In this document: positions 3,170 to 15,905 of the stretch, piece after piece | How positions within the stretch are numbered: the first letter of the stretch is position 1 | Layout: each line of letters opens with the position of its first letter | Source of the DNA: Candidatus Methanomethylophilaceae archaeon | GTDB taxonomy: Archaea > Thermoplasmatota > Thermoplasmata > Methanomassiliicoccales > Methanomethylophilaceae | Direction of reading: 5' to 3' | DNA: 64,000 nucleotides | Assembly: GCA_050950505.1 (NCBI GenBank) | Contig: JBMNHS010000001.1 | Location: 1 to 64,000 of the forward strand | Translations under genes and position numbers: made by a program | Notes under the pieces: model-generated | Told to the model about the DNA's origin: nothing | The model's input: the letters and a program-made list of their open reading frames with translations, nothing else | Databases searched by the model: none

Positions 3170-4804
3170 TCATTCTTCGGTGATTTTCAGACTCTTGTAT
3201 ATCAGAACCCTCTGGGGACATTCCCGTTCGCATCTGCCGCATGCGTATCCGCCGCAGAGATCCGTACGGATGTTTGCGTAACGTCCGTCATCCTCGTCGG
3301 TAATCTTTATCGCGCCTTCGGGGCAAACCCGTTCGCATTTGCGGCAGAATATGCATCCTTCGATGATTCCCCTCAGCATGGTGCCCGGATTGTCAAGAAC
3401 GAACACCGGAATCTTCTCGGTGTCGGGAAGATCCCTTTCCGTGATGCGTTTGACGGTTGGATTTTCATCGGGATCCGGTATCGGCGGTATGTTGTAAACC
3501 GCCAGCATGTTGTTGTATTCGGACATGGGCATGTTCTGGACCCAAAGAGAGAATTCGATGGAATATATGTCCTTGAAAATCTCCGAGGTCGCGAACATAC
3601 AGTGGTCTGCTCTCAGTTTCTTGGCCATTTCCCTCAGTTCTTCCAGATCCATTTCCCCGGTTGCGACTTTGCGGGCCAATCCGATCGATGTGTTTCCGAA
3701 CTGAACTATGTCGTTGACGCCGGGAACCACCATTCCTATGGACAGTGCTTTCTTGGCATCCACGTACAGACCGGAAGCTCCGGACATGTAAGTTTTCTTT
3801 ATGTCTCCGGTCCACATTCCCGCTTCGTCCAAAAGCGTGAGGAATCCCGCCCTGAGAGCGCCGATGGCTTTGCCGGCTTCCTCTATGTCCCTGGGGGTGA
3901 TGTCTATCCCGTCCTGAAGGTGCATCTTGCCGTCTTCGGTGTCTATTTTGGGGGGAACTATGAGACCGGTCTTCAAACCGCAGTAAAGGGCGGCAACCAC
4001 CCCCGTTCCGGTTATTCCGATGGCTTTGCCGTGCATGGGACCTTCTTTCACGACTTTGCCGGTTTTGGGGTCCACGGTGTCGCCTTCCCTGGGTGCCATG
4101 GTTTCATCCAATACCGTGCAGACCCATCCCTCGGAAGTTACGTTCACGTCGGATATCGCCCCGGGGGAGGCAAGCATTCCCCTTTCAATCTCCTGACCTT
4201 CGAGTGCAGGTCCGGCGGCCGCAGAACCCGTAATGATTTTTCCGTCATGTATCAGAGCCATTTCGGCATTGGTGCCGTAATCGGCCACGATGCAGGGTTC
4301 GGTTTCGCTGAGAGCATCGGTCATCAGAAGCATTGCCATGGCGTCCGCGCCGATTTCATGCCTCACGGCCGGAGGTATGGTCACCATGGCGTTGGGCATT
4401 CCTTCCAGACCCACTTCGGCCGCCGAAAGCACGGCGCCGTCTCTCTTCGGAGGTTCCACTCCGAGGTCGATAAGCATGTTTTTGCCGGCGTATGCCAAAT
4501 CTCTGATTTCTATTCCCTGGAACAGGGACAGCTGGAAAGGATTTCCGCATACCCCCAAATGTTCGACTTTGCTGAGATCCACGTTGAGTGTTTTGAACAA
4601 CGCGTTGATTGCGTTGAGAAGAAGTCCGGTGGCGGATTCCACCCCGTTCTTCATGGCAAAGTTGACATGGTCTATAACATTCATTCCGGGTATGGGATGA
4701 CGCTGGGTTATCGATGAAGCCAGAGTCTCCATTGTATCCAGGTCTATCGCTTGACAGCGAAGACCGCTGGTCCCTATGTCTAATGCAATACAGTATCTCG
4801 TCAT
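3170..4804 (-). CDS. ramA: Methylamine methyltransferase corrinoid reductive activase RamA
   Basis: ALDIGTSG ASKHA start, HEIGADA, DYGTNAEMAL, AAAGPALEGQ, two C-terminal 4Fe-4S motifs; lies next to the pyl genes. Confidence 0.93.
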   Translation of the reverse strand: MTRYCIALDIGTSGLRCQAIDLDTMETLASSITQRHPIPGMNVIDHVNFAMKNGVESATGLLLNAINALFKTLNVDLSKVEHLGVCGNPFQLSLFQGIEIRDLAYAGKNMLIDLGVEPPKRDGAVLSAAEVGLEGMPNAMVTIPPAVRHEIGADAMAMLLMTDALSETEPCIVADYGTNAEMALIHDGKIITGSAAAGPALEGQEIERGMLASPGAISDVNVTSEGWVCTVLDETMAPREGDTVDPKTGKVVKEGPMHGKAIGITGTGVVAALYCGLKTGLIVPPKIDTEDGKMHLQDGIDITPRDIEEAGKAIGALRAGFLTLLDEAGMWTGDIKKTYMSGASGLYVDAKKALSIGMVVPGVNDIVQFGNTSIGLARKVATGEMDLEELREMAKKLRADHCMFATSEIFKDIYSIEFSLWVQNMPMSEYNNMLAVYNIPPIPDPDENPTVKRITERDLPDTEKIPVFVLDNPGTMLRGIIEGCIFCRKCERVCPEGAIKITDEDDGRYANIRTDLCGGYACGRCERECPQRVLIYKSLKITEE

Positions 4805-4817
4805 TTTCCGTCTTCCT

Positions 4818-5624
4818 TCACTTTTTGGATGAAACCACACATTTGGCCGCCATGACGGCAGTCCCTATATTGAGTGGGTCATGTATTATCATATCGGATT
4901 TCCGTTCTCCCTCTTCATCGAAACCGTAGGGAATTCCCATGGAAGATATCACCGCCCCCTTGACGATGAGTTCGCTCGGTATCAGACCCGGGGCCGCGTC
5001 GATGATGTATTTGTGGGACGCTATTCCGTCATTTACCTCAACCGAAACCGCTCCGTACTCGGAAGCGAGTTTCTCCGCCTTTTCGGATATTATGTCGGTA
5101 ACGCTCACGTTGGCCCCTTTCCGCGTAAGTATCCGCACCGCTTCCGATCCCACCCGTCCGGCTCCGATCACCAGAACGTCTTTGCCTTTCAGTCCTCCCG
5201 CGGCAACGTCCAACGCTTCGGTGTATCCCGCGGCGGTGGATGATACGTTCTCGGAATGGACGCCGGTGACGGTGTTGTAAGCCAGGAACCTTTTGTCGTC
5301 GGCGATGAACAATAAATCCGCGCCTTTCTCCAACGCTTCGTAAATCCCGTCCACGTCGGGTTCGGAAGTCACGAAACAGTTGAATCCCATTTCTTCCAGG
5401 ATTGCTTTCACGCTCATGGAGAAACCGCCTATCACACCCAATCCCGCCGTTATGGGAACCGAAGCGGCGGAATATTCAGAAAAATCGTATTCATCGGGAT
5501 TCCCGCCGATTGCCTTGAATGCCAGTGTTTTCAGGTCCATTCCGATCTGTTCTTTGAGTTTTTCGCTGCGTTCCCGGGCTTTGGCCGGCAAATCGACTAT
5601 CATGTCTTCTGTGAGTCTTGTCAT
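4818..5624 (-). CDS. pylD: Pyrrolysine synthase (3-methylornithyl-N6-lysine dehydrogenase)
   Basis: MTRLT start, PITAGLGVIGGF, ADD, Rossmann GAGRVG, HDPLxIGTA; position in pyl operon. Confidence 0.93.
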   Translation of the reverse strand: MTRLTEDMIVDLPAKARERSEKLKEQIGMDLKTLAFKAIGGNPDEYDFSEYSAASVPITAGLGVIGGFSMSVKAILEEMGFNCFVTSEPDVDGIYEALEKGADLLFIADDKRFLAYNTVTGVHSENVSSTAAGYTEALDVAAGGLKGKDVLVIGAGRVGSEAVRILTRKGANVSVTDIISEKAEKLASEYGAVSVEVNDGIASHKYIIDAAPGLIPSELIVKGAVISSMGIPYGFDEEGERKSDMIIHDPLNIGTAVMAAKCVVSSKK

Positions 5625-6784
5625 CAAACCATCTCCGGCCCGGAGTCTGAAAACTTCTTCACTCCGGACTCTTCAATAATGCGGTCAAGAACTGACAGAC
5701 GTTGTTTCTCAGCTTCTTTCATATCCCGACCTTTCGTGATTACCGTTGCTCTCCATTCCGTTTTTCCCGGTTCGTAATCGGTAATCATTCTGTATGAACC
5801 GAACAGACCCGCGACAATCCTAGGATTGTTCACGGGTCCGAATTCCGTCTCCCCGCAGGTTCTGAGAACGCCGTCTTTGAACACATAATGTTCATAAATA
5901 CCGGCTCCGCGGCGACTTTTCTTGTTTATGGGGTTACCGAGTTTGCACCCGATGAGTTCCTCCAATAAGTTTATCCCCGTCCCGGCTTCCACCGCGGCGG
6001 GGGTCTGACTGGGTATTCTCGCATCGATTTCCAGCACTTTGAGGCCGTTGACGGAATATATGGCCTCCATGTCCATGAGCGCGCTCAATCCGATGGATTC
6101 CGCCGTCTTTCTGCAGACGTCCCTGAACAGTCCGTCATCCTCCGGAGAGAGGATGTCCGGTGCGCATATTACCATTTTACAATCATAGTTTTTGTCCAGA
6201 ACGACTTCCGTCGCAACGTAAGAACGTGCTTTTTCTCCGTTGCCGATCGCTTCTATGGAAACACTCTTTCCGGAAACAAATTCCTGTATTATGGGCACGT
6301 CGTTCAATCCTGCGACCTTTTCCAGGGCTTTCCGCCGTTCCCATTCGTTCTTCACCGCCGTAACGCCGACGCTTCCGCTCTGACAGGAAGGTTTCACGAT
6401 TGCGGGAAACCCGCATTCCGGCCAGGGTTTCGGCAAAGGAACTCCGGCTTCCGCCATGAATGTGTTGGAACGTTCCTTGGAACAGGATATGTCGTAAGCC
6501 TTAAGATCGAACAGGAAGGGTATTCCGGTATCTTTCAGACTTGTGTCAAGAATTTCAAGAAGATCTCTTTCCTCGCAGGCGGGGATGACCGCATCGCAGT
6601 CCTGAAAGATTCTGAGCGCGGCATCCATGTCCTTCGTCGGATCGAGAACGTGATGTTCGTCGGCGATTGAAAGCGCGGGGGCGTTCGGTCTTTTGTCAAT
6701 CACTGCGGTTTCGATTCCCGCCATCGTCGAGAGATAAACCGCTTCCATGCCCTGAAGGGCCCCTCCCACTATCGCGAGTTTCAT
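5624..6784 (-). CDS. pylC: 3-methylornithine--L-lysine ligase
   Basis: GGxLQGxE, ATP-grasp KPSxxSGSxGV, EIDARxPSQTP. Confidence 0.95.
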   Translation of the reverse strand: MKLAIVGGALQGMEAVYLSTMAGIETAVIDKRPNAPALSIADEHHVLDPTKDMDAALRIFQDCDAVIPACEERDLLEILDTSLKDTGIPFLFDLKAYDISCSKERSNTFMAEAGVPLPKPWPECGFPAIVKPSCQSGSVGVTAVKNEWERRKALEKVAGLNDVPIIQEFVSGKSVSIEAIGNGEKARSYVATEVVLDKNYDCKMVICAPDILSPEDDGLFRDVCRKTAESIGLSALMDMEAIYSVNGLKVLEIDARIPSQTPAAVEAGTGINLLEELIGCKLGNPINKKSRRGAGIYEHYVFKDGVLRTCGETEFGPVNNPRIVAGLFGSYRMITDYEPGKTEWRATVITKGRDMKEAEKQRLSVLDRIIEESGVKKFSDSGPEMV

Positions 6785-6785
6785 T

Positions 6786-7835
6786 CTAACAACCGCCCAT
6801 CCCCTTTCTTTTGGATTCCATCATTTCCCTGAATTCTTCGTTGGTGGCGGGACGCTTTCCGATTTCCCTGAGAATCTTGAACACGTATTCAACGGAACGG
6901 AGTCCGCTGTCTATGTCCAGTTCGTGCTGTGCCACTCCCGCAAGTTTCCTGTTGGGGGGAACAATGGATGTGATCAGGTTTGCTCCGGCGTTTATCCGGT
7001 CCACCATGCCCGAAATGCCTTCCACGTCCAGGGTGGCCGGTATGATCTTGTCGGGATACATGATTCTCATGATGGCTATCGACAGCAATTCATCGGTTGA
7101 GTCCGGGGGTTGCATGTCGCTCATGGGCGTTCCGTCCTGAGGGACGAAGGTCATGGCGCGTATCTGTTCGCAGCCCTGCGGGCCCATTCTCATGACGAAG
7201 TCCGCCTTGTCCTCCACGGTTTCGCCGAGACCGGTCATCATCCCGTCTTCGGTCAGCATTCCCGCTTCTTTGGCCCATTTGCGGACGTCTATGCGGGTCT
7301 GATAGTCCTGTTCGAGCCTGAGCTTGGCAAACAGCTCCCGGTTGTAGGTTTCCTGATAACAGGCGTAGAAGTCGGCGCCGGCTTCCCTCAGCTTGGGGAA
7401 GATTTCCTTCGGCACGGCTCCCGGGGACACCATTATCCCGATGTCCACGGCTTCCCGCACGGCTTTGACGATTTCCAGCAATTTGGCGCAACCGTCTTTG
7501 AACATTACGGGGTCTTCCCCCATGGTAAGGTCCACCAGATTTATTCCCGCGTCGCAGAGATTCTTGGACAGTTCCACAATCTCCTCGAGGGATTTTCTGT
7601 ATCTCTCCAAACCGCTGGTTCTTCTGAAGTAACAGAAAGAACAGTCGTTTTTGCAATAAGTCGAGAAATATACGAAACCGTAAGTGAATATTTTGTCCCC
7701 GTATTCTCTGTCCCGTATGTTTCTTGCGGTTTCGAACAGGAGTTCCCGTTCTTCCGGATCAGCGTTGAAGAGCCTTACAACATCATTCTTGGTAAGCTCT
7801 TCCCCGGCTGCCGATCTGTCTAATATTTTTTGCAC
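6786..7835 (-). CDS. pylB: Methylornithine synthase (radical SAM); ends in TAG
   Basis: YGFVYFSTYCKNDCSFC, DLTMGEDP, CYQETYN, LAGVAQ; GTG start. Confidence 0.95.
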   Translation of the reverse strand: MQKILDRSAAGEELTKNDVVRLFNADPEERELLFETARNIRDREYGDKIFTYGFVYFSTYCKNDCSFCYFRRTSGLERYRKSLEEIVELSKNLCDAGINLVDLTMGEDPVMFKDGCAKLLEIVKAVREAVDIGIMVSPGAVPKEIFPKLREAGADFYACYQETYNRELFAKLRLEQDYQTRIDVRKWAKEAGMLTEDGMMTGLGETVEDKADFVMRMGPQGCEQIRAMTFVPQDGTPMSDMQPPDSTDELLSIAIMRIMYPDKIIPATLDVEGISGMVDRINAGANLITSIVPPNRKLAGVAQHELDIDSGLRSVEYVFKILREIGKRPATNEEFREMMESKRKGMGGC

Positions 7836-7850
7836 ATCCGTGGAATCACC

Positions 7851-8675
7851 TCAATCGATTTTACGTCCGTTCAGATACGTCAGGCTGCGCCCGGTCTTGC
7901 GGACGGTGTTCTTGTCATATTTCAGAGCCAACAGGCGTTCAAGTCCGAATCCGACTCCGCACCAGGGCTCGTGAATGTCATGTGCCGCATCAAGCTTGTG
8001 CGGCCCGACGGCTCCGGAAGCCACTTCCGTGCCGTCTATCTCAACGTCCAGGGTCTCGACGTACACGTCGGATTCCTCCCTGACCGTTTCATATTCCAGA
8101 CCGACAACGTTCATTATGACGTCAATCAGTTCTCTCAGTTCTGCGACGGGATCTTCCAGTTGACCCTGAACCACAAGATTCAGCATGGTAAATTCTTCCA
8201 GATGCTTCCCGCTGTTGGATTCTTTCCTGAAACATGAACCGATTTCAAAGAATTTGATTATGCCGTCGGTGTGGTCACGGAGTTTCCGCATGTATTGGTA
8301 AAGGTTGGGAGCCAGCATCGGTCTCAGACAACGTTTTTTATCGATGAAAAACACCTGTCTGTAAAGAGCGTGATCTTCGTTGATCGTCATTTTTTCCAAA
8401 GCCGATTTCGACATTACGGTGGGTGTTCTTACCTCGATGAAGCCCAAATCGATCAGGGCTTTGCTCAGGTCCCGTTCCAATTGTACCAAGTCATGTCCTC
8501 TCGGGTTTTGAATCATGCCCTTTATCGCAGAATTATTGGCTGAGATTTCGGCGGCCATCAGTTTGGTGAAAGACCTGTCCCTTTCATCGTTGTCAGAAAA
8601 TTCTGATTCGTCGACGGGACCGTCGCCGTATTCCCTTAGTTTCTGTATCTGAGATTCCGTGTAACGAATGACCAT
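7851..8675 (-). CDS. pylS: Pyrrolysyl-tRNA synthetase lacking the N-terminal domain (274 aa)
   Basis: CLRPMLAPNLY, FEIGSCFRKES, HLEEFTMLN, GFGLERLL, YLNG; length and N-terminus (YTESQIQKLREYG) fit the Methanomassiliicoccales type. Confidence 0.97.
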   Translation of the reverse strand: MVIRYTESQIQKLREYGDGPVDESEFSDNDERDRSFTKLMAAEISANNSAIKGMIQNPRGHDLVQLERDLSKALIDLGFIEVRTPTVMSKSALEKMTINEDHALYRQVFFIDKKRCLRPMLAPNLYQYMRKLRDHTDGIIKFFEIGSCFRKESNSGKHLEEFTMLNLVVQGQLEDPVAELRELIDVIMNVVGLEYETVREESDVYVETLDVEIDGTEVASGAVGPHKLDAAHDIHEPWCGVGFGLERLLALKYDKNTVRKTGRSLTYLNGRKID

Positions 8676-8695: not shown

Positions 8696-8766
8696 TGGCG
8701 AGAGACCGGGGTGTCGAACCCCGCTAGCGAGGCTCTAGAGGCCAGCTGGTCACCGGACCGTCCCCC
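8696..8766 (-). tRNA. pylT: tRNA-Pyl (anticodon CUA) with encoded CCA
   Basis: GGGGGACGGTCCGGTGACCAGCTGGCCTCTAGAGCCTCGCTAGCGGGGTTCGACACCCCGGTCTCTCGCCA; cloverleaf, short D arm, interrupted anticodon stem; directly upstream of pylS. Confidence 0.95.
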
Positions 8767-9923: not shown

Positions 9924-11309
9924 TCACTGTTTGAATTCGAATCCGTAGTCGCTGAATCTCTTGACTGCCTTGTCGTAGACTTCACAGTGTTCTGCGGTAG
10001 GCATGATTGTCCTGGGATCATAGCATTCCTGGAAGGTCTTACCAGCAGGTGCGTTGGTGTAGAGCTTCTCGTAGTCTGCCACAATCTTCGGGAGAATCTT
10101 GTTGAGATATGCAACGTCCATTCCGGCTGCGGATCTTGCAGCCTCTCCCATGATCCTTGCTTCCATACCGGTGGTCTTGTCCTGGACAACACCCTTGGCG
10201 GCTGCGGATCCGGACAGGAGCTCTCTACCGGATGCGGTATCGATAATCGCCTGTGTGGCGGTTTCGATAAGACACATCTCAGTGCAGGGTCCTGCCATGG
10301 GGTAGTACTGGTTCGCAATCAGCAGGTCGGTGTTTGCATCAACGGCTGCTGCGGTGTGACCGGCAACCTGGAGGGTTTCCTTAGAGGTGGTTGTTCCCCA
10401 CCTGATGTGGATCGGACCGTCCAAGTGGTAGTTACCGCTGAACATCGTGAATGATGCAAGGTGAGTTGCGACTGCACAAATGGAGGTTTCTTCCTGCATA
10501 CCGGTGTATCCACCGAAGATCGGCATCTGCTCGATCATGATGGTGTTTCCGTTGCAGGTCCAACCGGCAAGCATGTTCAATGCGGCCATGTCGACCTTCA
10601 GCTCGTTGAGCTGGGAGCATTCGTGGGAGTCGCAGGTTCTCATACCGGCGTGTTTGGCGTCAACGCAGAGACGTCCGGCTGCGGACAGCGGAGTCTCGGG
10701 TCCCTACATGGCGAGTCCGGGCCTTCCGGCGCGGACACAGGCTTCCCTGACAGCACGAAGTTCTGCCATGGTAGCGCGTATTTCGTAGGGGGTGTTGGTC
10801 TTGGGGGACTTGCCCTCAATGGTGGTCAAGACACCGTTAACGATGGTGTCAACAACACTTTCCTGAGCGTAAGACTGCATAACCTGAACGAAGACTTCTT
10901 CGGACACAGGAGATCCGGTAGGTCCACCCTGAATGATGGGTTTCACAGGGCTGTTACCGCGCCTGGGGTAGAACTTGGCCGCTTCGGTTCCGTCTCCGAG
11001 TGTGATGTGTTTGGGGGTTTTCTTGATACCTTCCCAAACCTCTTCTTCGGTTACGTGGAACACACGACCGAGATCCTGACAATAGAATCCGGTCTCAACG
11101 AGCATTTCGAGACCTGCGTTGAACAGGTTGTTCATGACTTCTTTGTCTTCAGGTATGAATTTGTCGCCGAAGTCCAGTTTGTATTTTTCCTTGAGTTTGG
11201 TTGCGTTGGTGGGAATAACGGTGTAATCCCACTCGTCCTCCGTCATCTTTTTTCCCTTCAGGATTCTGTCGTAAACGTCACAAATCGTGATGGGTCTTTG
11301 TGCTGCCAT
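9924..11309 (-). CDS. mtmB: Monomethylamine:corrinoid methyltransferase, 461 aa, pyrrolysine at codon 202 (TAG 10704-10706)
   Basis: Two in-frame ORFs joined by one TAG: AGRPGLAM-O-GPETPLS...SQLNELKVD; also GGPTGSPVSEE, DGPIHIRWG, TTGMEARIMGE. Confidence 0.96.
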
Positions 11310-14501: not shown

Positions 14502-15905
14502 TTATCTCTTGGCGTAGTTTCTGAAGTTCTCGCAGCAGTTGATTTTGATTCCCAAAAGGTCCTCAATATTCATCTTTGCCGCGATTCCTCTGGGAGTGCC
14601 GGGGACGCCGGTGATGACACCGAGGCCCTGTTCTTCCCTGACTTCCCTGAGCTTGCACTCGTCGGAAAGGTCAAAAGCAGTGACTCCGAGCTTCTTTGCA
14701 ACGTAGTCCTTCGCTTCGTCGATCTTCATGCGCTGATCGAATTCCATCCTGGCGACAAGATCGCCGGCGGCTCTGATTCCTCCCATACCGGAAGCGACGA
14801 AGTGAGCGATTGACATGCCGGCGGGGTCGCCGACTCCAACCTATATACCGTCCACTTTTGCGATTTCCACCATTGCGGTGCTGCATCTGGTGACTGCGTC
14901 AAGAGGCGGAGTCTCGGCCATGGGGATACCGCCGACGCCCATTCCCATGTTCACGTGAAGGGGAAGGTTGGATACGTCTGCGCAACCTCTCACGAAAGTC
15001 ACCGCGCGGGCAAGGTTCCATGCAAGACTCTTTCCGGTGTTGGTGTTTGCAACGGGTCCGAAAACATCGGCACCGGCTTTCTCGGCGAGAACAACCTGTT
15101 CCTGAGGGAACAGACCGGCAACGACCTGACCGTCGTACTCGATTTCACCGTGGATACCCATGACGTTCTCTCCGGCCATGCCGAGGAGAATGTATGCGTT
15201 GGGACACTGTGCCCTGAGCTTCTCCACTCCGTGGAGGGTTCCGACGAAGTCGGCATCTCCGGCGGAGGCGGTGGTGTCGAAGTTGAAACCGTCGGCACCT
15301 GCCTTGTAAACTCTGGTGGAAACGTATTCGATATCCCTTGCTAGGTGTACGGCGGATTTCTCCGCTTCCTGCTGAGCTTCTTCGATCTTGAATTCCCTCA
15401 TGAGGTCTGCGGGGTTTCCGTAGGGTCCGTCAGGGGCGTAGTACAATCCCATGTTGGGCATTGCGCCGTAGAAGTAAGGAATGGTGAGGTTGTTCTGAAT
15501 GTTCTCCATGTCGTTCATTTCGTTGGCGATGACCGGCTTCACAGGCTTGATGCTGTAATCGGTGTGGGCGAGTTCGAAGGTATCGGCACAGAGTGTGCGC
15601 TCGTGAACAAGAGCTCCGTTGAGTCTGCTGGATGCGATTCCTCCGCCGCTGTTTCCGTTGTCGCCGGCCATGTCGAGCTGTCCCACGTCGTAGGAAAGAA
15701 CAACTTCTCTGCCGCGTTCGACGCCGACGACTCTCCTCTTGCTGCTGATGATTTCGAAAAGGTGGTCGATTTCGTTTGCATTGAGTTCCCTGACGCCTGC
15801 CATGTCGGCCGCGTCGGCGGTACCGTCCCTGATGTCCTGCATCATCTGTTCCTTGTTCTGGTACAGAGTGGATCCGTCACCGTTTCTGGTGCAGTATTCA
15901 GACAT
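14502..15905 (-). CDS. mtbB: Dimethylamine:corrinoid methyltransferase, 467 aa, pyrrolysine at codon 355 (TAG 14841-14843)
   Basis: [32 protein letters not shown]; [34 protein letters not shown]. Confidence 0.96.

Follow-up and report, generated by a model that had tools for sequence, protein, structure and literature searches.

A conserved TAG at the pylB-pylC junction of Methanomassiliicoccales and its possible role as an amber gate on pyrrolysine synthesis

Why should pylB, a gene for pyrrolysine (Pyl) synthesis, end in TAG, one nucleotide before the start of pylC, in a genome that carries TAG as a Pyl codon? The question was raised by an earlier note on a 64,000-nucleotide stretch of DNA from a Candidatus Methanomethylophilaceae archaeon (the window, which is analysed here as a whole), in which this TAG was proposed to be a Pyl-sensing feedback switch. 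We examined the junction in the window and in its relatives. The genes were identified with curated NCBIfam cut-offs, each of which is exceeded by PylS, PylB, PylC, PylD and RamA; the four Pyl proteins, together with a tRNA cloverleaf carrying a CUA anticodon, identify the locus as a pylTSBCD cassette, laid out as follows.

8697..8766, minus strand: pylT (tRNA-Pyl), anticodon CUA in the loop CUCUAGA, with a broken anticodon stem (cloverleaf in the fold; anticodon read from the sequence)
7851..8675, minus strand: pylS, short form without the N-terminal domain, TGA stop (TIGR02367, PylS C-terminal form, 266.8 bits, cut-off 178)
6786..7835, minus strand: pylB (methylornithine synthase), GTG start, 349 codons and TAG (TIGR03910, 436.6 bits, cut-off 348)
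5624..6784, minus strand: pylC (3-methylornithine--lysine ligase), ATG at 6782-6784 (TIGR03909, 315.6 bits, cut-off 248)
4818..5624, minus strand: pylD, its start overlapping the pylC stop (TIGR03911, 217.6 bits, cut-off 150)
3170..4840, minus strand: ramA (corrinoid reductive activase), downstream of pylD (TIGR04270, 695 bits, cut-off 500)

For pylT, Rfam gave a weak tRNA-like match only, at 8700-8766, and no tRNA was called there by ARAGORN. The overlap of pylC and pylD has the form TGATG that had been read before, with TGA at 5624-5626 and ATG at 5622-5624. On the minus strand the pylB-pylC junction itself reads ...GGC GGT TGT TAG A ATG AAA CTC..., and contains four elements.

6793..6798, minus strand: Shine-Dalgarno (SD)-like GGGCGG in the last pylB codons, 8 nt upstream of the pylC ATG
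6786-6788, minus strand: amber codon, which ends pylB or, on read-through, encodes Pyl (window sequence; invariant in 16/16 species of the genus)
6785, minus strand: spacer base A, from TAG to the pylC ATG (window sequence; a purine in 47/47 junctions, G 28 and A 19)
6696..6785, minus strand: pylB read-through extension, 29 codons and TGA, overlapping the first 89 nt of pylC in another frame

The TAG-A-ATG junction is thus as the earlier note described it (TAG 6786-6788, A 6785, ATG 6782-6784). Its stop lies a few nucleotides from a start and its SD within the preceding gene, which is the layout of a termination-reinitiation junction; most relatives have GGAGG where the window has GGGCGG. Translated from the window with the TAG taken as sense, pylB continues with NETRDSGRGPSGHGSGLSLDDGGNRNRSD to the TGA at 6696-6698, a tail of 29 residues that agrees letter for letter with the peptide previously given, and its out-of-frame overlap with pylC, put at about 90 nt, measures 89 nt.

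The rarity of this stop was then considered at the level of the window and the genome. Among 57 ORFs called in the window by a crude codon-usage caller, 41 end in TGA, 13 in TAA and 3 in TAG, close to the 42, 13 and 1 counted by hand in the earlier note. Two of the three TAGs are in-frame Pyl codons, of mtmB (10704-10706) and mtbB (14841-14843); once the halves of these two genes are joined, the window holds 55 genes and TAG terminates pylB only, which agrees with the claim that pylB is alone in this respect. Over the whole genome (1.33 Mb) TAG ends 14 of 1206 called ORFs. Three of these are methylamine methyltransferases (mtmB, mtbB and mttB) and three have an in-frame TAG in a UbiA-family, a Fer4 and a helicase protein, in each of the latter within a conserved domain. 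Considering that six of the 14 are in-frame, about eight candidate terminal TAGs at most are left genome-wide, that of pylB among them, and pylB is not the sole TAG-ending ORF. In mtmB, mtbB and mttB, the base after the in-frame Pyl codon obeys no common rule.

In the window's genus, TAG-R-ATG is found at pylB-pylC in 16/16 species, among which the pairwise identity of PylB goes down to 69%. In the control positions of the genus pylB genes, the third base is kept in 1 of 23 amino-acid-invariant K/E/Q columns and in 1 of 59 fourfold columns; the synonymous sites are saturated, and the TAG is nevertheless kept. The spacer base toggles between A (10) and G (6), eight different codons precede the TAG, and the other genes of the same loci end in TAG in 0 of 66 cases.

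The order-wide comparison covered 148 pylB copies from 143 genomes, i.e. 150 rows minus L023 and L049, which run off their contigs without a stop. One pylB locus, L118, has an internal TAG. The stop background was taken from homology-based genes of the same loci, greedy long ORFs having been dropped as noisy, with spurious ORFs among them. The pylB copies end in TGA (89), TAG (53) or TAA (6). The earlier reading had been made to depend on related pylB genes departing from background stop usage, and they do depart from it: beside the 16/16 of the genus, TAG ends 48/119 copies in the family and 53/148 in the order, against 6/669 (0.9%) and 24/844 for the other genes of the same family and order loci. 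TAA in the same background amounts to 91/669 (13.6%) in the family and 16% order-wide, and the control genes pylC and pylD of these loci end in TAG in 0/118 and 2/114 cases. Within the family, all TAG-ending pylB copies belong to the 97 that have pylC within 12 nt (48/97), and none to the 22 that have not. In the stop-N-start geometry we counted 47 TAG, 6 TGA and no TAA, yet TAA is one transition away from TAG; other pylB-pylC junctions of the order are ATGA or TGATG overlaps. All 47 TAG-N-start junctions have an SD-like motif, which ends 5-12 nt, mostly 7-8 nt, upstream of the start. Many relatives, namely the 89 copies with TGA and the 6 with TAA, do without the pylB TAG, and all 14 copies of the genus that we take to be Methanomethylophilus are among them. 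On the PylB tree the stop state changes about 11 times, versus 42.6 for shuffled labels, so that the 53 TAG copies go back to roughly a dozen events, and Fisher P values make the evidence look stronger than it is. Taken as a comparison of sequences, the data make it well supported that the pylB TAG is not due to chance and that the codon is under selection.

These features would be explained by a UAG-gated translational-coupling junction tying PylC/PylD output to the supply of Pyl-tRNA, the selected codon having a dual meaning; in our judgement the arguments for and against this model are evenly balanced. The conserved TAG-R-ATG probably serves the cell as a sensor of its pyrrolysine supply, by a mechanism and in a direction that we infer as follows. 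The gate would consist of an SD-like motif, N7-8, and then TAG-R-AUG at the pylB-pylC junction. At the UAG, aRF1 would release the ribosome, which would then start again at the pylC AUG four bases further on, or Pyl-tRNA(Pyl) would be accepted, adding Pyl and a short, non-conserved tail to PylB; in the second case the ribosome would cross the pylC initiation region out of frame, over 19-29 codons. With these two fates, the share of ribosomes reaching pylC, and pylD via TGATG, would fall as charged tRNA(Pyl) rises, and the outcome would presumably be a negative feedback on pyrrolysine synthesis. Such a gate supposes that UAG still serves as a stop part of the time in this organism, and that pylC depends on re-initiation. 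As the UbiA-family, Fer4 and helicase genes contain in-frame TAG, the Pyl supply must be kept up, and homeostasis would be useful. On the other side, a gate placed after pylB leaves the first enzyme unregulated, PylC and PylD alone being an odd place for feedback, and pylC has a good SD of its own, so that it may not need coupling.

The sensing switch proposed earlier thus stands in part. The TAG is kept despite saturated synonymous divergence and occurs only where pylC directly follows, and both observations fit a coupling role. The idea that read-through would tag PylB with a disordered tail is, on the other hand, without support: no conservation of the tail sequence was found among the relatives' junctions, the wobble positions of pylC, which are the first positions of the tail codons, vary freely, and the length is about as chance gives, being 19-24 codons for 44 of the 47 junctions, 19-29 codons overall. 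In 14 of the 16 genus junctions, RNAalifold (−6.07 kcal/mol, 0/12 compensatory pairs) found no conserved hairpin of the PYLIS type 3' of the UAG.

Under full reassignment, TAG would be a Pyl sense codon, PylB would always carry Pyl and the tail, and the codon would be kept because Pyl or the tail matters to the PylB protein, e.g. in switching its stability or activity, and not for the coupling of pylC. We consider this unlikely. TAG is indeed nearly purged as a stop (14/1206 ORFs) and occurs in frame within conserved domains in three genes other than methyltransferases, and the accessible part of bioRxiv 10.1101/2024.09.30.615893 reports TAG as Pyl genome-wide for relatives and PylB among the proteins with experimentally confirmed Pyl. 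However, the tail has a non-conserved sequence and a chance-like length, and lies over freely varying pylC wobble positions; TAG is absent from the 22 family pylB copies without an adjacent pylC, and a role at the protein level would not need the fixed TAG-R-AUG geometry.

That geometry could also serve a coupling enhancer independent of Pyl, in which UAG acts as a (slow) stop: the ribosome would pause and be held at the pylC start, and re-initiation would be promoted through termination kinetics and not through sensing. The constant 1-nt spacing of stop and start, and the SD-like motif and the purine after TAG, each in 47/47 junctions, are what such an enhancer would show. In four genomes the pylC start position is ACG or CTG with the 386-codon ORF intact, which suggests re-initiation; however, in the same four genomes pylC may in fact start at a GTG five codons further downstream. 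With charged tRNA(Pyl) present, competition at the UAG is unavoidable, so that Pyl could hardly be without any influence, and we regard this explanation as rather doubtful, a little more so than the full reassignment.

Next comes a neutral relic, improbable to a slightly greater degree: the pylB of an ancestral cassette happened to end in TAG, and as read-through added no more than a short, harmless tail, nothing favoured a replacement. In nearly all cases the extension is short and closed by a stop, the stop states cluster strongly on the tree (11 changes versus 42.6 shuffled) and many lineages have lost the TAG. In bacteria, pylB ends in TAG at an ordinary rate (6/31), which is as a relic would have it and lends no support to a gate from bacteria. 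This bacterial count leaves out one mis-labelled archaeon and five loci labelled as other taxa, probably mis-binned archaeal contigs, of which four show TAG-G-ATG and one, L202 (labelled Megamonas; PylB identity 45%), does not; among its best 80 loci, the scan of genome contigs for pylB gave Methanomassiliicoccales and bacteria only. Against a relic, the synonymous sites of the genus are saturated, yet in 16/16 species the TAG has become neither TAA nor a sense codon; TAA-N-start counts 0 versus 47 for TAG-N-start, and TAG is otherwise selected against, with its background of 0.9%. Moreover, the sister family has a TAG of its own at another junction of the cassette: pylS ends in TAG in 20/21 copies, followed directly by GGAGG and the pylB start, at a background TAG of 12.3%, and synonymous control sites of pylS are invariant in 0/12 and 0/25 cases, i.e. 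0/37.

The gate model can be extended to both families, with cis-acting amber gates in the pyl operons of Methanomassiliicoccales, at pylB-pylC in the window's family and at pylS-pylB in the sister family, which would set PylC/D or PylB/C/D by termination-reinitiation versus read-through. This wider proposal is tentative, and we place it just short of an even chance.

The window does have two elements of an RF2-type frameshift site, a downstream ORF (pylC) in the +1 frame and, 3-4 nt upstream of the TAG, an SD-like motif, which is also at an ordinary initiation distance from the pylC AUG. That slow decoding of the UAG would lead to a programmed +1 frameshift and a PylB-Arg-PylC fusion is nevertheless very improbable: the +1 codon is always AGA or AGG, as the spacer purine in 47/47 junctions dictates, and four genomes have no canonical start at the pylC position, but the 47 junctions have 17 different codons before the TAG, hence no slippery P-site codon, the SD is spaced as for normal initiation at the pylC AUG, and no fused PylB-PylC was found among proteins of 612-2000 residues, where the two matches were distant radical-SAM proteins of 26-27% identity (weak evidence).

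If the gate model is right, an expanded genetic code would measure its own 22nd amino acid, with a stop codon as the basis of a sensor of tRNA charging. Such a sensor would be an archaeal counterpart of RF2 autoregulation, keeping the Pyl supply steady in archaea that are nearly fully recoded. The junction would also mark a conserved site where TAG is probably still a stop, in lineages proposed as fully reassigned. For the engineering of Pyl cassettes from these organisms it could matter that the behaviour of a clone retaining its native junction would depend on whether the host suppresses amber codons. The available portions of PMC12626013 and PMC13663744 call the cue that regulates the pyl genes unknown, and treat the matching of Pyl supply to demand and the management of a codon that is both stop and Pyl as an open question. 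UAG in the coupling junctions of pyl operons would be a concrete element linking read-through efficiency to Pyl synthesis.

Several known systems resemble the junction. Genetic Code 34, in which all TAG are Pyl, is proposed for Methanomethylophilus, Methanoplasma and others in bioRxiv 10.1101/2024.09.30.615893, whose accessible part also describes Pyl at TAG in M. alvus by proteomics. The window genome, of the same family, shares with these organisms the depletion of TAG at gene ends and the in-frame TAGs inside conserved proteins other than methyltransferases. In that scheme, as given in the part consulted, a read-through with an out-of-frame overlap of more than 60 nt is Category 4 and counts against reassignment. 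The overlap of pylB with pylC reaches 89 nt in the window (about 59-74 nt, or 19-24 codons, in relatives), so that, on this definition, the conserved pylB TAG is an exception to the Code 34 scheme or a dual-use codon within it. If TAG were always Pyl, there may be little or no termination at the junction, and the gate would not switch.

The closest precedent is Methanosarcina acetivorans, where the same gene has a TAG at the same end. According to the available text of a 2025 PNAS paper (PMC12626013), which cites O'Donoghue 2014, Pyl incorporation was reported at this C-terminal in-frame TAG of PylB, both stop and Pyl readings of UAG are reported in this organism with read-through efficiency proposed as what is sensed, and the authors find it tempting that the TAG tunes Pyl biosynthesis. 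The general idea is therefore partly anticipated; in the same text we found no conservation analysis or coupling-junction model, and the junction architecture and its conservation, here TAG-R-AUG in Methanomassiliicoccales, were not found in print as far as the accessible sources go.

Genes coupled by ATGA or TGATG have, like pylB and pylC, a stop and a start only a few bases apart, with the SD in the gene that comes first, whereas the pylB-pylC junction is non-overlapping, has a fixed 1-nt purine spacer, and its stop is also read as an amino acid. In the autoregulation of bacterial RF2 (prfB), a stop codon is read by the component whose supply it controls, through a +1 frameshift on the slippery CUU U. 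The likeness lies in a stop inside the gene or operon, an SD-like element just upstream and an ORF that continues in the +1 frame. At the pylB junction, in contrast, no slippery codon is conserved and termination with re-initiation versus read-through is proposed in place of frameshifting, and the molecule sensed, which is the release factor in RF2, would be the charged suppressor tRNA.

A complete pyrrolysine cassette is found on the minus strand of the window, its protein-coding genes all scoring above the NCBIfam curated cut-off:

8697-8766, minus strand: pylT, tRNA-Pyl with anticodon CUA, cloverleaf in the predicted fold
7851-8675, minus strand: pylS
6786-7835, minus strand: pylB
5624-6784, minus strand: pylC
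4818-5624, minus strand: pylD
minus strand, part of the cassette: ramA

The pylT gene was missed by ARAGORN and gave only a weak match (17.5 bits) to a tRNA-like Rfam model; a cassette annotated automatically will thus be without pylT. The pylB-pylC junction reads GGT TGT TAG A ATG AAA:

6786-6788, minus strand: pylB TAG
6785, minus strand: spacer A
6782-6784, minus strand: pylC ATG

The 29-residue read-through tail that the earlier note had predicted for PylB was reproduced, ending at the TGA at 6696-6698, and the pylC-pylD coupling that it proposed corresponds to a TGATG overlap in the sequence.

Using a crude codon-usage ORF caller, we counted 57 ORFs in the window, closed by TGA (41), TAA (13) and TAG (3). 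Of these three TAGs, two fall within mtmB and mtbB, where they serve as in-frame Pyl codons, and therefore pylB alone terminates at TAG in the window, as first noticed. In the whole 1.33 Mb genome, TAG closes 14 of the 1206 ORFs called in the same way, three of which are mtmB, mtbB and mttB. Three more of these TAGs are internal to genes in which Pfam domains extend across or beyond the codon:

C1:626552-627397 (locus L233): UbiA-family prenyltransferase
C1:1017040-1017732 (L235): Fer4 protein
C1:1138060-1140903 (L236): helicase with PLD, ResIII, Helicase_C and DUF3427 domains

From their sequences, these three genes are candidates for Pyl proteins beyond methylamine metabolism. A HAD-family hydrolase (C2:134618-135268, L237) ends TAG GAA AAA TGA, and its back-up TGA overlaps the ATG of the next gene, so that coupling would survive read-through. 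The remaining TAG-ending ORFs are short or without assignment, and pylB is the single clear case in which read-through would take the ribosome a long way into the following gene, out of frame. With few TAG ends and several in-frame TAGs, the organism therefore resembles relatives for which a preprint (bioRxiv 10.1101/2024.09.30.615893) proposes near-complete reassignment of TAG to Pyl; in M. alvus, TAG makes up 1.6% of stops according to PMC4153887.

The stop codons of pylB were then tabulated across the order, as the earlier note had suggested. The NCBIfam PylB profile TIGR03910 matched above its cut-off in 156 of 261 Methanomassiliicoccales genomes, and our sample consists of the 149 above-cut-off places listed outside the window plus the window itself; 360 further matches beyond those listed are likely to be mostly weaker paralogues, with some true pylB possible. 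After exclusion of two copies that run off their contig, 148 copies in 143 genomes remained and, among the matches listed, they end in TGA (89), TAG (53) or TAA (6). The TAG share of 53/148 compares with 24/844 for other genes in the same loci (orthologues of genes of the window's genome whose alignment reaches the C-terminus, 191 in-frame methyltransferase TAGs being removed). This background divides into 6/669 in the family Methanomethylophilaceae, 0/66 in the window's genus, 16/130 in sister family f6 and 2/45 in family f7. Its commonest terminal TAG is that of mtmB, the true end of the gene in 10 of the 150 orthologues that these loci hold of window 9924-10643, the stretch encoding the mtmB C-terminus.

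TAG-ended pylB copies by genus, among the matches listed
g1 (the window's genus): 16/16
g7: 2/2
g11: 2/6
g14: 3/15
g15: 24/54
g18: 1/1
g30: 1/2
g40: 4/4
all other genera: 0

Among the matches listed, 47 of the 53 TAG-ended copies have the arrangement TAG, one base, pylC start, and this stop-N-start geometry was found order-wide with TAG 47 times, with TGA 6 times and with TAA never. In the family, 48/97 listed pylB copies with pylC within 12 nt end in TAG, versus 0/22 without (Fisher P 3.8e-6, uncorrected for relatedness). As controls from these loci, TAG closes pylC in 0/118 cases and pylD in 2/114. At the 47 junctions, the spacer is G (28) or A (19) and never a pyrimidine, and every junction carries a Shine-Dalgarno-like purine run (GGAGG in 23, GGGGG in 11) ending 5-12 nt, mostly 7-8 nt, before the pylC start, which is ATG, GTG or TTG in 43, ACG in 3 and CTG in 1.

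The genus of the window is a group set by taxonomy rather than by the trait. PylB pairwise identity there ranges from 69% to 100%; among 23 Lys/Glu/Gln columns with an invariant amino acid, just one keeps its A/G third base, and among 59 fourfold columns just one keeps its third base. The codon directly 5' of the TAG takes eight different forms, and the base 3' of it is A (10) or G (6). Judging from these columns, a neutral TAG would be expected to drift to a sense codon or, by a single transition, to TAA, and this happened in 0/16 copies. On a FastTree PylB tree (143 rows, five copies with short or unextracted sequence left out), the TAG/other state changes 11 times versus a mean of 42.6 in 200 label shuffles, and the data therefore represent about a dozen events with long persistence, not 53 independent cases.

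No conserved RNA structure was detected at the junction (RNAalifold −6.07 kcal/mol, no compensatory pairs in 14 of the 16 genus sequences), and no slippery codon precedes the TAG, with 17 different codons at the 47 junctions. The tail sequence is not conserved: each tail codon begins at a wobble position of pylC, and these positions vary freely; its length, 19-24 codons in 44/47 junctions, is about that expected for a random frame. A protein search found no fused PylB-PylC protein, which is weak evidence.

All four g40 genomes (family f7, L146-L149) have the pylB TAG though no pylC follows, and read-through would add 80-121 residues not conserved between genomes. In one MAG, 68% complete (L118, G179), pylB has, besides its terminal TAG, an in-frame TAG at codon 131 in place of a conserved Glu; the choice is between a Pyl codon within a gene for Pyl synthesis, an error of sequencing and a pseudogene. 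In bacteria, the share of pylB genes closed by TAG is ordinary (6/31). Four contigs with pylB carry a TAG-G-ATG junction like that of g15, and their PylB is 59% identical to that of the window. Their records bear the labels Lachnospiraceae, Bacteroidaceae, Firmicutes CAG:194 and Prevotella (L164, L165, L172 and L189); the contigs probably come from archaea and were binned with bacterial MAGs by mistake.

In family f6, which we take to include Methanomassiliicoccus, pylB ends in TGA, and it is pylS that TAG closes, in 20 copies out of 21 (L121-L141), with GGAGG directly after and the pylB start 8-13 nt past the TAG. In most copies, a ribosome reading through this TAG would continue for 25-50 codons across the start of pylB, out of frame. 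Pairwise identity of f6 pylS falls to 53%, and none of the 37 control columns is invariant (Lys/Glu/Gln 0/12, fourfold 0/25). Genera g9 and g16 of the window's family add three genomes with a pylS TAG (L023, L024, L119); there too, GGAGG and the pylB start come directly after it, and the PylB of these genomes groups with the f6 cassette lineage. Two cassette lineages therefore have an amber codon at a junction upstream of biosynthesis genes, at different junctions.

The best-supported reading is that the codon is kept by selection for its effect on ribosomes at the junction. After termination at UAG, the ribosome would stand at a distance of four bases from the pylC AUG, the Shine-Dalgarno sequence being in place, while insertion of Pyl would carry it out of frame through the pylC initiation region. 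PylC, and PylD via the overlap, would then be set by the balance of the archaeal release factor aRF1 and charged tRNA(Pyl), with negative feedback as the most sensible sign. In four g15 genomes (L067, L071, L098, L103), ACG or CTG takes the place of the pylC start codon and the 386-codon ORF is intact; two of them have no upstream in-frame start. These codons hint at re-initiation, although a GTG five codons downstream could be an alternative start. A steady supply of Pyl, needed for the codons in the UbiA-family enzyme and others, would give such a device a purpose; Borrel 2014 reports Pyl in the digeranylgeranylglyceryl phosphate synthase of M. alvus. A TAG that never acts as a stop in this organism would leave such a gate unable to switch, and the explanation would then have to be a stall sensor or a role for Pyl at the protein level in PylB.

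The pylB TAG-pylC observation is thus confirmed and much strengthened. In the literature searched, we found no description of an amber pylB-pylC or pylS-pylB junction in Methanomassiliicoccales, a result that covers passages of Borrel 2014 (PMC3941956 and PMC4153887), of the ISO4-H5 genome paper (PMC5011839) and of the reviews PMC8211752 and PMC9499178. The Pyl-sensing interpretation is plausible and partly anticipated. The Code 34 preprint (bioRxiv 10.1101/2024.09.30.615893) lists PylB among the proteins with confirmed Pyl. The nearest published statement, in the Discussion of PMC12626013, concerns the C-terminal TAG of Methanosarcina PylB and suggests, as a guess, that it tunes Pyl biosynthesis. 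That paper also proposes that some UAG-containing regulator senses read-through efficiency.
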